From: Eledone cirrhosa
Lineage: Eukaryota
Assembly (NCBI GenBank): GCA_964016885.1
Contig: OZ024742.1
Coordinates: forward strand, 278,504,001-278,568,000
DNA: 64,000 nt
Direction: 5' to 3'
Every line of letters begins with the position of its first letter. The first letter of the stretch is position 1. Both the position numbers and the translations under genes were made by a program. The notes beneath the pieces are model-generated. The model was not told the DNA's origin. It ran no database searches and saw nothing but the letters and a program-made list of their open reading frames with translations. Below, one piece after another: positions 9,693 to 63,800 of this stretch.

Positions 9693-10270
9693 TGTTATTT
9701 ATTTACTTTATTCTTAACTCTGAAGTCGAGTATCATTCGGTTTCCTAAATAGAAATTTACACTACGACTTCAGTTATACCATATATGTGGTTTTGTCTTT
9801 GCGTGTAATTGTTCTCACCGCTCCACATATGACGTATCACCTTCGTGTTTTCCGCTTATTGCCAGAGAACGTCTCCACGAACCACCTAATAGAATATTAG
9901 TCTACGACTTCATTTATACCATACACGTGGTTTTGTCTTTGCGTGTAATTGTTTTCATTGCTCCAATTCCAATTAATAACGTATTATTTTCGTTTTTATC
10001 CGTTCTTTGCCAGGGAACGTTTCCACGAACCAAAGTATCGTCTTCCTGTCTACCTTCGGTGGCAAAGTATTTTGAAATATTTACTTCTGCGTTCACAGAT
10101 TGATTTCTTTAGTTTCAGAAGATCCCGTTAAGGGTGAAAGCAGCGATTCTTTGCTTAAACTTTAATCTGTTATTTTAATTAATATTTGCACTACGGTTCT
10201 TATCTATATTTCATATATATATATTCTTATCGAGCCCTCTTTGGATTTTAGTCTTCAAATTTATTATTAT

Positions 10271-10272
<2 letters not shown>
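9693..10272 (+). mobile_element. Non-coding repeat family A (about 140-nt internal tandem plus variant HHR)
   Basis: Other copies at 18790-18978, 19868-20210, 46958-47690 and 60787-61250. Confidence 0.85.
10095..10170 (+). ncRNA. Hammerhead-like fold with CAGAAGA core (family A)
   Basis: ACAGAUU..AGUUU CAGAAGA U CCC GUUAA GGG U GAAA GCAG CGAUUCU UUGC UU AAACU..AAUCUGU; all three stems pair. Confidence 0.6.
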
Positions 10273-10332
<60 letters not shown>

Positions 10333-10345
10333 CATATATATATAT

Positions 10346-11161
10346 TTCAAACAATACCTGCTATTCACCTCCAGCCATCCAAAGCACACGAAGACGAACC
10401 TCTCTTTTAACCTAGCAAAAATAATTTGCATAATTCAAAGATTAAAGGAAACTCTTCTCGAAAGACAGTATCCACCGTTACTAATAGATAATGGAATACA
10501 ACGGACTAAAGCATTAGGCATTGATGAATTACGAAAAGAGAAACAAATTCAAGGTACGTCCAATATTCTATCATATATCTCAACACACACCCAAGAAATG
10601 CGGAAGCATTCAACATTATTCAAAAGAACATCCCACTATTGAAACAAGACCCAAGAATGAGAAAGTACTTGAAACACACAAAATAATCAAAAGCAAAAGA
10701 CAACCGAAATCTCTAAAAATATTACTGGCCAATGCCAAATTACCTATCACAAACCCACAGTATACATTTCAATCAGGACGACATTTTCCTGTATAATATC
10801 ACTTCACTTGTTCATCAAAAAATTTAATTTGTGCCATTAAATGTAAAGGATGCAATGAAGATTATATAGGGCAAACTAAACTCACACTCAGAAACAGAAT
10901 GACAATTCATCGCCAAAAATTACGAGACCCTACCACAAGACAGATACCACTCAGTGCACATCTAGACATATGCGCAAGAGATAAGACACCCAAATTTCAA
11001 GTCTTCCCACTTTATCTTTGCGCGGACAATACAATCGACCAAATACAAATAAATAAGGAAAATATGTTTATTCAAAAATATAGACCAGCATTAAATATGG
11101 TTTAATATACATTAATATGTTAACACAATAACACGCTACACATCCAAACAGACACACACGC

Positions 11162-18980: not shown

Positions 18981-19565
18981 CCGATACGTGCATATATATA
19001 TATGTGTGCATGTATGTATATATATATACATACAACTGTACGTCTGTATACATATATGTATGTAGGTATACATACATACATACTTACATTTAAGTAACTG
19101 CCGTACTAAGTGTAAGAAATGAAATTTCGTTGCATTCTATTCCATTTATCGTTTTCGGTGCGCCCGGCCGACTAAACTCACTCGATATGCAAATTAGGCT
19201 GCTCAGCTGTTAATATGCATAAGGAAAGTATATACTTTCAGACGTTCAACCATCTGGCAGGAAGGTATACGATGCTGACGATAGCTAATAAGCTTGAAAC
19301 TAGTACATCGTTCCTGTGTCAGTGTTGAACAAAAAGGTGACGTGGTTGCGTAATTCGGGCTGTTTGTTTGTTTACAGACAAACCGAGCATTATCATAAAT
19401 GTTCGGCAAACCGATACGTGCATATATATATATATGTATGCATGTATGTATACTACTGTACGTCTTTATACATATATGTATGTACGTATATATACATACA
19501 TACATACATTTAAGTAACTGCCGTACTAAGAGTGAGAAATGAAATTTCGTTTCATTCTATTCCAT
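18981..19565 (+). mobile_element. Non-coding repeat family B (about 430-nt unit, terminal direct repeats, HHR)
   Basis: 18981-19145 repeats at 19411-19565. Other copies at 27727-28530 and 46355-46800. Confidence 0.88.
19269..19311 (+). ncRNA. Minimal type I hammerhead ribozyme (family B)
   Basis: ACGAUG CUGACGA U AGCU AAUA AGCU U GAAA CUAG UA CAUCGU. Confidence 0.85.
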
Positions 19566-30761: not shown

Positions 30762-37107
<6,346 letters not shown>

Positions 37108-43549: not shown

Positions 43550-46320
43550 TAAAATCTGCTCAATAATCTAAAAAACGCCAATGGAATTATTGTTAGAGCA
43601 GACAAAACATCAAACGTATATACCATGGATGTGGACACTTACAATAACTTCATCCGTAAGGAATTGCATAAAAAATACAGGAAAACTAATGAAGCCACAC
43701 TTAAAAACATCAACAACTCGGCATGTGATATTGTTAAAAAACTTTGTATTACGATAGAACGCAACCCTTAACACCAGCTATACCATCCTTCAACCTGAAG
43801 GACCACAAGATAAACTTCGATACTAACCCTAATATTAGACTTATATGCCCCTCTAAATCTGATATAGGTAAAATTAGCAAATATATACTAGACAGAATTA
43901 TCCCCCAAGTTAAGGTTAAAGTAGAGATTAAACTATGGGGTAACACTCATGAAGCAATAAGATGGTTTAACAACATTACTGATAAGAAAAAATCAAAATT
44001 TATTCAGTTTGATATTGATGAATATTATTCCTCAATTTCACCTGATACTCTACATGAAGCTCTTTCGTTCGCTAAGGATAATTCCGACCTTACGGATGCT
44101 GAAATTAAAATTATTATGGAAGCGAGAAAAACTATAGTTAAATTCGATGATAGCTACTGGGTTCGCAAAGATAGACCTTCTAATTTTGATATCACTCTGG
44201 GTTCTAATGATTCGGCGGAAGTAACAGATCTTGTGGGAATTTATATCACCCACAGATTACAAGGAAAATTCAAGGATCTCCACGGTGGAATTTACCGTGA
44301 CGATGCGCTCCTATTAGTTAAGCATATGAATAACCAGAATTTAGAAAGGATGCGTAAAAATATCTGAAAACTTTTTAAAGAACTAGGATTAAATATTACA
44401 TTTGAATATAACCTCAAAGAGGTCAACTTCCTTGATGTTACTTTCAATCTCAATACAGATACGATTAAACCGTTCCATAAACTAAATGAGAACCTTAAAT
44501 ATGTAAATACGAGTTCTAACCATCCACTCTCTATAATTAAATCCATCCCTAGAAATGTTTCTCTTAGAATCTCCCGCCTATCGTCCAACCAACAAACCTT
44601 CAAAGAACATGCCGAGTATTATGATGATGCACTTAGGAAAGCCGGTCACCTAGATAATATAGAGTATATAGTCAATGATCACCAAAACACCCAAAATAAA
44701 TCACATAGGAGTAGAAATAGCACAGAATCACCACCATACATACACTACCGCAATAGACACAATAATAGTCGCACACCACCAAACAGAAGGCGATGTAAGG
44801 AGTATATCTGGTACAACCCGGTCTATAACAAATCTATTAAAACCAATCTACCCTAAAAATTCTTTCGATTAGTTAGAAAACACTTTCCAACATCACATAA
44901 ATATAATAAAATCTTAAACCCTAACACTATTCGACTTTCATATTCAACCGCCCCTAATATTGAACAACATATAAAAAAGCTTAACGCAAAACGGTTGTAT
45001 AAACGCCTTCCAACACATAACAATACACGTAAAACATTAGCTATAACATCACAAAATAACAAACAACATCCTGTCCTACATAAGCAACCTCATCAACCCA
45101 TCCATGGCAATACAACAACGCAAAATTGTAATTGCAACTGTGTCCAACCAGGAATGTGTCCGTTGAACAATCAGTGTTTTGAACGCAACATCGTATACAA
45201 ATGTAGTATCGAATTGGATAGACAGAAGTGGTACTATGTGGGATCTACAGCCACCTCCTTCAAATCACGCCTTTATAGACATCGTTATTCGATAAAATAT
45301 GAAAACCAGCGTTATGTAACAACACTCGCAGACAAGGCTTGGCAGCTGCGTGAAAATAACCAACAATTTCACCTAAAATGGGATATAATAGCGCTGCCCC
45401 CCCCCCCCCCCCCCCATAATCCAATGGACAGGAATTTTGTAAATTATGTAATGTAGAATTATTTTGTATTATGAAATCCAAAAACATTTTATTAAATAAC
45501 AGAATAGAGCGATCGTTATACTGTAACCATCGCTTAAAATCTACATTTTCATATTATAAATACTACCAGGATTGAACGCCTGTCTCTATCCCCGTTTGAT
45601 TGTCAAAATAGATATGAACATTCTTTATTAGTCTTAATTCTATCAACTCTTCTATTATTTACCTTTTAATACAAACTGCTATAGATAAAATGAGATTTCT
45701 GATTTCTTGATTCAATTCCCTAGTGCATATACCAGCTGGCTACTAGCATTGATGTTATTTAGTAGCAATCGAAATCTCCCGCTTCCCCAATTGACACTTT
45801 ATAATTAATACTACTGCACCAAATGACCACCCTGTCCACTGTCCAGTTGGTCAAGTAGAGATTAAAATTGGCACTCCCAAAATTCTTATTTAGATTTACT
45901 CATGGTATTCTCATTAAAAACCCATTATATACTTGTTTAGCAGTAAATTATTTTACCATCTGTCATATTCTATCCCCTCTGTTCCTTCCTCTTTTACTAA
46001 TATAAATACTTCAATTTTTCAGATTTTATCCAGTTTATCCAAAATCTCTGAAGAAGTGACAACTGATTATACATTTGCTATCGAATACTTGCTAACATTA
46101 TATGATTACGCAAGCAGCGATACATAGGTATTCGGTCTGTTACAGAAACATATGTCAATACCTAATAAATTCCTTTTTTAACAAAAGCACTTTCATTTTA
46201 TATTCATCCTTTCTACATTTCTCCGGAATATAATTTATACTCGTTGAGCAAACCTGCACGTACGCTGTTCATCTCTAACGTAACGATATATTATCACTAC
46301 ATTATTGATAACCTGAAATT
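43550..46320 (+). mobile_element. Naiad-like Penelope element (RT plus C-terminal GIY-YIG), decayed
   Basis: IIVRADKTSNVY, LKDHK..NP..RLICPSKSDIG, FDIDEYYSSI, FDITLGS.DSAEV.DLVG, GIYRDDAL, VNFLDVTF, IWYNP, CNC..CPL..QC..IVYKC, YVGST, CKLC, CNH. Disrupted by frameshifts and stops. Confidence 0.92.
46048..46156 (+). ncRNA. Hammerhead-like fold with extended stem II in the Naiad tail
   Basis: CUGAAGA A GUGACA ACUGA...UCGGU C UGUUAC A GAAA CAUAUG UC; stem I pairs poorly. Confidence 0.5.
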
Positions 46321-59960: not shown

Positions 59961-60166
59961 CGAGCCGTATTATAAGATGGATTTCAAGGTGAAGCTAAAT
60001 CGCTTGTCCTGTCTATCGACTACTTTGTTGTAGTGCTGTAAAACAACGACTCTCTTCATACTACCCACTCTACTACCCAAAGTATCAAGTACTCTGATGC
60101 GCTATGGTCCACCTGGTTTCTTACCACACTTTCTTTGTTTATATATATATATATATATTCATTTAT

Positions 60167-60527
60167 ATTTGTTGGTTTACCTGGTCATTCTGCAATGTTA
60201 ATCATGACGTTATATGAGAAAAGCACTCGACATCATGCACCTCTTCCATTTTTGATGTTGAATCATGTTGGTGGTGCAGAAATAAATAAATAAGGAAATT
60301 CAACATATTTGGCCTCCTGTGATTTCACTTTATAAATATATATATATATATAGTATATAATAAACTGAAACTACAGGAGGCCAAATATGTTGAATTTCCT
60401 TATTTCTTTATTTCTGCACAACCAACATGATTCAACATCAAAAATGGAAGAGTTGCATGACGTCGAGTGCTTTTCTCATATTACGTCATAATTAACATTG
60501 CAGAATGACCAGGTAAACCAACAAATT
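60167..60527. repeat. About 360-bp palindrome (arms about 165 bp, TA-rich spacer)
   Basis: ATTTGTTGGTTTACCTGGTCATTCTGCAATG...GGCCTCCTGT / ACAGGAGGCC...CATTGCAGAATGACCAGGTAAACCAACAAAT. Confidence 0.95.
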
Positions 60528-60595
60528 TAAAAGAATATATATATATATATAGAGAGAGAGATTACAATAATCAAAGTTCAGTTTAAATCATTTAT

Positions 60596-60644
60596 TTGCT
60601 TACAATTGTTTCCTCCAAACCGAGGTTTGGATTCTTCGGAGCAA
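60596..60644 (-). ncRNA. Type I hammerhead fold with CCGAAGA core (family H)
   Basis: UUGCU CCGAAGA A UCCAAAC CUCG GUUUGGA G GAAA CAAUUG UA AGCAA. Confidence 0.7.
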
Positions 60645-61250: not shown

Positions 61251-61335
<85 letters not shown>

Positions 61336-61490
61336 ATATATATAAACAAAGAAAGTGTGTTAAGAAACCAAGTGGACCATTACGCGTCAGATTACCTGAT
61401 ACTTTGTTTAGTAGAGTGGGTAACATGAAGAGAGTCAGTATTATAATACTGGTGGGTTTTATCGGATCTAGGTGTTTTATCGGATCAGCT

Positions 61491-61535
<45 letters not shown>

Positions 61536-61714
61536 ATATATAAAATTCAATATGTTGAAAAGGTAACACACTAGAGAGAGATATACAGTGCGCTATCAAT
61601 AAAACAGAGAAAAACCACCAGTGTATGGAATCTATAACCTATGAAAGGCAGGCTATAGACCCGATAATTAAAAATATAAATTAAAGCGTAAATAAATACC
61701 TCTATAACTCTATA

Positions 61715-61796
61715 ACACACGTACAAATCCAAAGAGATCTATTTCGCCAGTAAGTTGTTGACAGAAATGGAATAACCCCGGTTCCTCAGCGTGTGT
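61715..61796 (-). ncRNA. Hammerhead ribozyme (family G, inverted copy)
   Basis: ACACACG CUGAGGA ACCGG..CUGGC GAAA UAGAUC..GAUUUG UA CGUGUGU. Confidence 0.8.
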
Positions 61797-61980
61797 AAGG
61801 CTATACATTTCAGACAACACTAAGATAATTTTAAAAGTGACTGTCCAGCTACACGTGGGAGAGAGAAGTCACAGCGTGTTTAAGGGCTGTGGGAGAGAGA
61901 AGTCACAGCGTATTTAATGCACGTGTAGCTGGACAGTCACTTTTAAAATTCTCTTAGTGCTGTCTGAAATGTATAGCCTT

Positions 61981-62062
61981 ACACACGCTGAGGCACCAGT
62001 GTTATTCCATTTCTGTCAACAACTTACTGGCGAAACAGATCTCTTTGGATTTGTACGTGTGT
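61981..62062 (+). ncRNA. Hammerhead ribozyme (family G, A9C substitution)
   Basis: ACACACG CUGAGGC A CCAGU..ACUGG C GAAA CAGAUC UCUUUG GAUUUG UA CGUGUGU. Confidence 0.75.
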
Positions 62063-62522
62063 TATATAGTTATAGAGGTATTTATTTACGCTTTAATTTA
62101 TATTTTTAATTATCGTGTCTATAGTCGGCCTTTCATAGGTTATAGATTCCATACCCTGGTGGTTTTTTCCTGTTTTATTGATAGCGCACTGTATATCTCT
62201 CTCTAGTGTGTTACCTTTTCAACATATTGTATTTTAAAGAGCTCAGGATGTTTTCTCCTTTGAGAACATTATTTACAGGGAATGGCGAGGGTCTATGACT
62301 CCGTTAATTTATCGTGATATTTCGCTGCTTATAACAGTCTTTCCCATCTCTCTGTTTGGTTGAGGACACTTCTCTGAGTGGTTTTGGGCTGCCCTTTCTA
62401 GCAGCTCGTCCCTCGAGGCCACTGGTTCACTGCCCTTAAACACGCTGTGAGTTCTCTCTCCCACGTGTAGCTGATCAGTCACTTTTAAAATTCTCTTAGT
62501 GTTGTCTGAAATGTATAGCCTT

Positions 62523-62604
62523 ACACACGCTGAGGAACCGGGGTTATTCCATTTCTGTCAACAACTTACTGGCGAAACAGATCTCTTTGGATTTGTACGT
62601 GTGT
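62523..62604 (+). ncRNA. Hammerhead ribozyme (family G, intact core)
   Basis: 7-bp stem I ACACACG/CGUGUGU, CUGAGGA, GAAA, 7-bp stem III, GUA triplet. Confidence 0.88.
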
Positions 62605-62854
62605 TATATAGTTATAGAGGTATTTATTTACGCTTTAATTTATATTTTTAATTATTGTGTCTATAGTCTGCCTTTCATAGGTTATAGATTCCATACACTG
62701 GTGGTTTTTCCCTGTTTTATTGATAGCGCAGTGTATATATCTCTCTAGTGTGTTACCTTTTCAACATATTGTATTTTAAAGAGCTCAGGTTTCTCTCTCC
62801 TTTGAGCACATTATTGACAGGGAATGGCGAGGGTCTATGGCTGCGTTAATTTAT

Positions 62855-62891
<37 letters not shown>

Positions 62892-63044: not shown

Positions 63045-63800
63045 TAGCAGTCGTACCCGGCGTTGCACAGGATAAGGTATTTTGGAACGGGAGCCGCCTA
63101 TAAACCTAATCGTGGAAAAACTGCAAGCCTGGACAATATGTAAAGAAAATAAACCCAATACACTAATCGCTGGATAATCTTTAAGATTTTCCCCGATGAA
63201 GCAGGAAAAATGCAGGTTTTCACGTAATGCGGACCCTAGGGGATGAGGAAAATGAATTTTTTTACGTGCATAATATGCCTTGAAATTTCGGGAAAAGCGG
63301 CGGCTAGATGTACCGCCTCAAAAAAGCCCTAAAAAGCTGAAAAAATGAGGTTTTTCACCTAATGCGGGCCCTAGGCCATAAGAAAGTTGGATTCTTTTTA
63401 TGTGCGTAACACTTCATGAAACATAAGTATTACGCCTGTAAAGTTTGAAAAAAATAGGTTGCGTACTTCTCGAGTTTTAGGGATTCAAACACACAGACGC
63501 ACACACACACAGACACACACACACACAGACACACTCACTCACACACACACATACAGACAGACATCCTCTGTTTTATATATATAGACTAGCAGAAAACCAC
63601 CCGGGGGGGGGTTCTGCTAGTCTATATATCTAAAACAGAGAATGTCTGTCTGTCTGTCAGCTCACTAAAACTTGAGAACCATCCAACCGATTGTTTTCAA
63701 ACTTTAGACATGTAATACTTATGGTCCTGTGAGCGTTTTGAGCAAACATTATTTCAAATTTTCAATGCCCTAGGGACCGCATTAGGCGATTTAGCGTTCT
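63041..63800. mobile_element. Helitron/DINE-like non-autonomous elements joined in inverted orientation through a hairpin
   Basis: Start TACTAGCAGTCGTACCCGGCGTTGC, ACAG/CA microsatellite, end TTTTATATATATAGA; CTAGCAGAA..TTCTGCTAG hairpin; inverted related copy at 63620-63790. Confidence 0.65.

Follow-up and report, generated by a model that had tools for sequence, protein, structure and literature searches.

What kind of element is the head-to-head, hammerhead-bearing insertion at positions 61,493-62,887 of this Eledone cirrhosa window (the whole 64,000-nt stretch of DNA analyzed here), and what put it there? Its best explanation, to which we assign a probability of roughly 65%, is a two-armed insertion of a dispersed, non-coding 542-nt element bearing a hammerhead ribozyme (HHR), likely a non-autonomous Penelope-like element (PLE) of the animal non-LTR retrozyme type; that the origin is non-autonomous and PLE-type, taken alone, we regard as highly probable. 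Insertion into (TA)n was likely carried out in trans by a PLE reverse transcriptase/GIY-YIG enzyme. The earlier note on this DNA had set retrozyme against PLE: the unit is indeed non-coding and of retrozyme type, but its insertion anatomy is that of PLEs, and the two are linked in print (bioRxiv 10.64898/2026.07.22.740005, in its available text, argues that animal retrozymes derive from PLEs and relates them to PLE pLTRs).

The two arms of the insertion sit between two (TA)n runs, as had been noticed before: a (TA)n/(TG) microsatellite on the left (61493..61542) and a (TA)n microsatellite on the right (62859..62887). The inverted arm (61541..61891, minus strand) is 351 nt long, comprises unit positions 509-542 followed by 1-317 on comparison with the unit, and is 96% complementary to 62428-62778; its 3' end (61541-61545, minus strand, u313-317) is the short one of two fixed ends described below. 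The plus-strand arm (61920-62862) consists of one 542-nt unit and a further 401 nt, across which its two copies are 95% identical. Unit 1 occupies 61920..62461, with u1 (61920) at the 5' truncation point of this copy; partial unit 2 (62462..62862, u1-401) terminates at the long fixed end and carries an 88-nt tail (62775-62862). The longest stop-free frame of this arm is 82 codons. Between the arms lies a junction (61889..61919, minus strand) in which 61855-61883 has been copied again as 61889-61917 (29 nt, 97% identical) through realignment at GTG, followed by 2 nt, directly past which the plus-strand arm begins at the palindrome CACGTG. The short junction duplication of the earlier note is thus present, and the template jumping it proposed is supported by the 3-nt GTG microhomology.

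That note had also called the insertion young. Counted over 317 shared positions, this means 7 private changes in unit 1, 5 in unit 2 and 7 in the inverted arm, a total of 19 over 3 x 317 nt, or ~2% per copy. The three segments were therefore probably identical at insertion, and each has drifted by ~2% since. The window locus is an ordinary, partly decayed member of its family.

A motif scan finds three type I HHRs in the insertion, all with 7 bp in stem I and 8 bp in stem III. HHR1 (61981..62062, core 61988, plus strand) is predicted to cut after 62055 and HHR2 (62523..62604, core 62530, plus strand) after 62597, which reproduces the HHR-to-HHR anatomy first proposed for this locus: a predicted cut-to-cut monomer of 542 nt (62056..62597, plus strand), with 40% GC and, when folded as a circle, 59% pairing (z -2.1 relative to 40 shuffles). 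HHR3 (61715..61796, core 61789, minus strand; predicted cut after 61722) lies in the inverted arm, where a third motif had been reported; the "antisense HHR" is real as a motif, but it is the same motif carried in the inverted arm and nothing separate. HHR3 has an intact core with a C15.2>U wobble, and HHR2 an intact core of CUGAGGA/GAAA/GUA. In all three, loop II has 25 nt and stem II is closed by A10.1.C11.1, not by G-C. Because an Rfam scan of the window gave no hits at the gathering threshold, their identification as HHRs is based on motif, stems and conservation within the family.

HHR1 reads CUGAGGC in place of CUGAGGA. This A9C change, already suspected of impairing the ribozyme, occurs in only 1 of 115 HHR copies and is thus private to unit 1 of the window copy, where two further private changes fall in stem II or its loop. 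A9 is required for efficient hammerhead cleavage, and HHR1 is likely impaired; the window copy is predicted to release little monomer and to be a poor source of circles. Owing to A9C it also lacks the two complete HHRs that bioRxiv 10.64898/2026.07.22.740005, in the text at hand, asks of a retrozyme. Its promotion as the best retrozyme candidate is not supported: 13 of 24 sampled multi-HHR arms keep two intact HHR cores in tandem, and the window copy would be a poor choice for experiments.

The unit is non-coding, has a GC content of 40% and is arranged head-to-tail. An exact 28-mer from it has 1,008 matches in the genome and its reversed control none, which shows that the unit is no product of chance. 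Searching the genome with the unit gave 2,778 first-look candidates; among the 40 of these that were scored, full-length matches are 90-94% identical. The genome-wide search for multimers suggested earlier does find them: the family is dispersed over many contigs, mostly as one to three units, and a long array stands at C4:220353396-220357250. Some multimers are later DNA duplications (three identical units at L023; 0.6% divergence at L002). An older subfamily, 75-88% identical (153 matches), shares the unit and its ends. We found no tRNA gene in the unit and no matches to the family in viral contigs. We mapped 101 copies in all: 90 loci yielded 76 elements, and another 30 loci yielded 25 once 5 duplicates had been dropped. 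The loci were chosen as best matches or as the first listed on contigs 1-2. A truncated copy of the family is also embedded in a 3-kb non-coding composite repeat, found on several contigs and in tandem (L012, L022, L030, L038, L074-L076; G000:C1:135719276-135725623). An apparent autonomous tandem at C1:135.72 Mb, with three HHRs 2.7 and 3.2 kb apart, was rejected, as it consists of truncated copies inside this repeat.

The 5' ends of the copies are scattered. Their 3' ends fall at u304-318 (short) or u394-404 (long) and abut TA-rich sequence; the two sites, 88 nt apart, are found 177 nt and 265 nt downstream from the HHR cut, and both finish with 3-5 nt matching (TA)n, within which a target-site duplication is unreadable. 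Two-armed copies make up 43 of the 76 mapped elements, and 16 of 26 in the set not selected by length. In all 28 of these 43 that retain both ends, one end is short and the other long (the remaining 15 have a broken end), and the same holds for 9 of 9 scorable two-armed copies of the older subfamily (6 others have a broken end). Combined, 37 of 37 scorable two-armed copies are short+long, with no short+short, no long+long and 21 unscorable because one end is broken. One-armed copies of the 76-element set are found with either end (short in 15, long in 11 and other in 7), so that under independent choice 37 of 37 would have a probability of ~0.5^37.

An abundant coding PLE family of this genome, PLE-A, served as a control. 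Among 60 of its loci, 25 of the 26 with both ends scorable are short+long, where the long end reached the edge of the reference and its exact position is not fixed; in the single exception the arm stands 5 kb off. The family has two features of PLE insertions, a partial tandem with an inverted 5'-truncated copy and a tail at one end only, the latter in every scorable two-armed copy. The one-sided PLE tail and the inverted copy had been described qualitatively (PMC3846280, PMC8557442, in their available parts). In the portion of PMC11167929 that we could use, the PLE tail spans in vitro the interval between two internal start sites of the reverse transcriptase, and both strands of AT-rich targets are cut and extended. 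Within the accessible text of the literature searched, we found no count of end pairs and no such rule for a retrozyme; what matters here is the strict end rule with a coding control, together with constraints on the template. Insertions of the family end exactly as the coding PLEs of this genome do, which makes the element likely to be a retrozyme copied by PLE enzymes.

On what template, then, did such an enzyme work? Over 41 non-CpG columns, subfamily-diagnostic positions are discordant at 6.5% between arms and at 4.6% between tandem units, both at background level, and at 38% between elements. Of 47 elements 42 are homogeneous, and in the other 5 one pair, of units or of arms, is mixed. 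Sharing of rare variants is ~10 times more frequent within elements than between them, and informative sites group by locus in 4146 cases, by position in 85 and crossed in 68. These counts point to a single template variant as the source of all arms and units within a copy. The cut site was read through at least once in 92 of 132 arms and at least twice in 24 of 132. A pile-up of 5' ends at the HHR cut is not seen, either within 3 nt (2 against 1.9 expected, p=0.57) or within 8 nt (7 against 4.65 expected, p=0.19), nor are there convincing fixed differences between upstream and terminal units (u329, in the tail, has p=0.0003 among 88 columns tested). One variant per copy, together with reading through the cut, excludes a linear cut monomer for most copies. 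The template was thus either one unit read repeatedly, that is, a circle, or a homogeneous uncut multimer.

The second of these alternatives, an uncut linear multimeric transcript of the same non-autonomous PLE, from a young homogeneous tandem source whose HHR cuts late or rarely so that no circle is needed, we think the less probable account. The 92 of 132 arms that pass the cut site are compatible with it, and long arrays such as that on C4 are available as a source. In the available text of PMC11167929, HHR mutants left insertion unaffected and the main substrate was uncut RNA; in that of bioRxiv 10.64898/2026.07.22.740005, only 1 of 9 Xenopus retrozyme dimers was cleaved in vitro.

The predicted fold of the HHR also bears on this question. 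Folding, in a prediction without tertiary contacts, favors an alternative to the HHR in which UUUC-U-GUCA of loop II (62552-62560) pairs with UGGC-GAAA (62570-62577), forming a hairpin (62552..62577, plus strand) that covers the catalytic GAAA. The pairs of this masking helix are retained in 96.6% of cells, compared with 70% for stem II, and the hairpin could form before stem III is transcribed, as the uncut-multimer account would have it. In the 44-sequence alignment, 96.8% of cells are paired for stem I, 94% for stem III and 70% for stem II. In the U11.1 subfamily one pair of the hairpin is broken. For the linear precursor, the hairpin is predicted with pair probabilities of 0.1-0.6. Of 38 copies with intact cores, 37 have a predicted probability near zero for the strict HHR fold, and in the circle model the pair probabilities of stems I and II are about 0. 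The conserved loop II hairpin is predicted to mask the catalytic GAAA as a competing inactive fold. PLE HHRs are described as weak and atypical in the part of PMC4209133 available, and the action of the HHR as protein-assisted in that of PMC11167929. Roughly a dozen distinct type I HHR variants recur across the loci fetched, most of them lacking the canonical G10.1-C11.1 pair.

Two observations weigh against the uncut multimer. Subfamily variants are uniform over all units of a copy, with no position-specific signal; such uniformity calls for repeated passage through a single unit followed by re-expansion, which a circle gives for free. The HHR structure also appears to be under constraint among source lineages: polymorphism affects 4 of 48 core or paired positions, compared with 13 of 34 in loops (p=0.002), though 4 of 48 is not clearly below the rest of the unit (54 of 460). 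The four polymorphic core or paired changes keep or improve pairing, and the variation is located at N7, at 11.1 (C or U) and at wobble positions. One pair of stem I has changed on both sides, from A-U to G-C, in 4 of the 44 aligned sequences; neither the HHR nor the masking hairpin shows covariation above the level of shuffles.

A separate question is how the two arms were primed. In a scheme put forward in the available text of PMC3846280 and PMC8557442, fold-back self-priming or an antisense template would give rise to the inverted arm and endonuclease resolution to the tail, in place of two priming events; this concerns the priming step only. The palindromic or duplicated pieces at junctions (CACGTG in the window copy, and also at L155) fit this scheme, as does the single template variant common to both arms, which it predicts. 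We nevertheless consider it doubtful: there is often no relation between the unit positions at which the two arms start, either arm may be the longer, one-armed copies finish at the same two sites, and two such sites are start sites of the reverse transcriptase in vitro in the text of PMC11167929 at hand.

Could the unit instead be the pseudo-LTR of a coding PLE outside our sample? The anatomy is PLE-like, and PLE families are many in this genome and only a few were sampled. Several copies have fragments of a PLE open reading frame (ORF) no more than 1.5 kb away, and at L157 a mid-RT fragment stands directly against the long end, on its strand. An ORF flanked by the unit, on which the earlier note would have given up the retrozyme reading, is found in none of the 101 copies (~1.5-kb flanks, eight PLE protein pieces as queries): what stands upstream of u1 is either u542 or the point of truncation, in no case an ORF that copies share, and the only flank shared among copies is the non-coding composite repeat. 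The nearby PLE fragments come from different families, and the ones we inspected have distinct HHRs of their own. We therefore hold this explanation to be very improbable. The one candidate with a 3-kb spacing proved to be non-coding. A satellite or MITE-like repeat spread at the DNA level, with a chance or dead HHR, would fit the few arrays with identical units and the covariation that stays within shuffles, but is largely refuted by the fixed 3' ends, the scattered 5' truncations, the (TA)n targeting, the short/long rule common to a coding PLE and the constrained HHR core.

Returning to a non-autonomous PLE, we looked for its autonomous partner with four PLE endonuclease-region queries and by local alignment to 14 HHR/pLTR regions, and found none that shares unit sequence. 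The best alignment score (z 3.8, PLE-E) is likely due to AT-rich sequence, and a score of z 90 was discarded because a copy of the family lay inside the test window. PLE-type open frames of at least 844 aa exist in the genome, and one young family has frames of 844-873 aa in ~5-kb tandems. The 844-aa frame has no match in Pfam or PDB, and we take it to be a PLE from motifs described in the literature and from its Atlas neighbors. The young family represented by L298, L300 and L301 (G000:C15:42.26 Mb; C1002; C1:337.65 Mb) has very long 3' regions and is a candidate source of the enzyme. The lack of a partner among the families sampled counts against our best explanation, as do covariation no higher than in shuffles, the low predicted probability of the HHR fold, a tail longer than the 30-40 nt in print, the 5 mixed elements and the multimers that are later DNA duplications.

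Copies of the family often adjoin PLE ends inside shared (TA)n, and in three cases the join contains no (TA)n. At L155 (G000:C3:286688145-286691525) a short-ended retrozyme arm is joined to a long-ended PLE-A arm at TATA microhomology; at L154 a long-ended retrozyme arm meets a short-ended PLE-A arm, and at L156 an arm of the family meets a different PLE family, neither with (TA)n between. L154 and L156 were set aside as chimeras, since they are explained equally well if one element inserted later next to a PLE end and a small deletion occurred. No further chimeras with PLE-A were found at the 5' junctions of the 60 loci fetched. Only L155, one of 61 PLE-A loci reached other than through the retrozyme family, is hard to explain by later insertion, and we treat it as a lead only.

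How might a non-autonomous PLE of this kind produce such a locus? A tandem copy would be transcribed, and HHR cleavage, probably slow or protein-assisted, followed by ligation would yield a 542-nt circle, a step to which we give even odds. A PLE protein would then nick both (TA)n strands and both 3' ends would prime on the same RNA, which we think probable, one at the short site and the other at the long site, with 3-4 nt of TA microhomology helping. The enzyme would travel round the unit for a variable distance, the two cDNAs would be joined head-to-head by microhomology, leaving junction duplications, and the window copy would have gained A9C after insertion. In the accessible text of PMC11167929 there is no start-site difference between strands and the main substrate is uncut RNA, which counts against this account. 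A more specific version, in which a PLE dimer sits on one 542-nt circle and, at a (TA)n break, primes each strand from its own dedicated site, the two sites being mutually exclusive, while it rolls round a circle whose HHR the hairpin switches off, we offer tentatively as less likely than not. If it is true, the one-short-one-long rule, common to coding and non-coding families, would be a genomic footprint of PLE integration, and chimeras such as L155 would be direct records of PLE enzymes moving a retrozyme.

The window contains other elements of related kinds. A second HHR family, with a minimal-type motif, occurs on the plus strand at 19275, 28283 and 46485; at L044 two of its copies stand in tandem 420 nt apart (2487 and 2907, minus strand), probably representing another retrozyme-like family. 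Broken PLE-type RT/GIY-YIG frames lie at 43738-45456, 31013-32027 and 10166-11105 (plus strand) and at 35119-36706 (minus strand), and for the family to which the 10797-11102 piece belongs, the genome holds 17,335 first-look candidates. Other inverted-arm elements are nested to the left of the insertion (60039-60168 / 61316-61445, 60132-60561) and include an HHR-like motif at 60639 (minus strand); to the right is an element bounded by inverted repeats (63422-63483 / 63662-63723, 63045-63600).

The enzyme that moves retrozymes and the mechanism of the inverted-plus-tail PLE insertion are stated as open in the available text of PMC7229834, PMC8557442 and bioRxiv 10.64898/2026.07.22.740005. The present family ties retrozymes to PLEs by insertion anatomy, beyond co-occurrence, and sharpens the description of a tail "often at one end" to a rule with almost no exceptions (37 of 37, and 25 of 26 in the coding control) that any mechanism must explain. 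Its 542-nt non-coding RNA with two mapped ends is also small enough to be convenient as a substrate in the in vitro assay that exists for PLEs.

It is instructive to compare this insertion with known systems. In L1 twin priming, a head-to-head inversion arises through priming by both target strands, with the second primer at variable internal sites. Here, in contrast, each end lies at a fixed site, and part of the sequence is common to both arms.

Judged by its sequence, the family has the tandem HHR-bearing units, the non-coding make-up without LTR-type architecture and the dispersed multicopy distribution of an animal non-LTR retrozyme. Like those described in the available text of PMC7229834 (Cervera & de la Pena 2020) and bioRxiv 10.64898/2026.07.22.740005 (Li et al.), it is built of tandem units that code for no protein and contain one type I HHR apiece, has a GC content below 50%, ranges from monomers to multimers and is dispersed alongside PLEs. 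The 542-nt unit falls within the 51-972 bp range of the latter, but exceeds the 170-400 nt circles shown experimentally for animal retrozymes. Most animal retrozyme circles are predicted to have a free HHR (PMC7229834, in the part at hand), whereas here a long stem III and a 25-nt loop II are predicted to mask GAAA; and unlike the animal retrozymes compared, the family has no sister PLE pLTR among the families sampled. The Chlamys elements such as MRC1 (PMC8557442, as far as available) are likewise non-autonomous and pLTR-forming, with head-to-tail multicopy insertions, but their 3' ends are similar to those of an autonomous family and most Chlamys lack a canonical HHR, whereas here the HHR is present and no partner was found.

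Compared with endonuclease-positive PLEs (PMC3846280, PMC8557442, and Poseidon from Anolis, PMC11167929, in their accessible portions), the present element has no ORF, is 542 nt long, has a tail of 88 nt instead of 30-40 nt, and ends 177 and 265 nt downstream of the HHR cut. With the same PLEs it shares the partial tandem and the adjoining inverted 5'-truncated copy, the tail at one end, the HHR upstream of two fixed 3' ends, and (TA)n or AT-rich targets.
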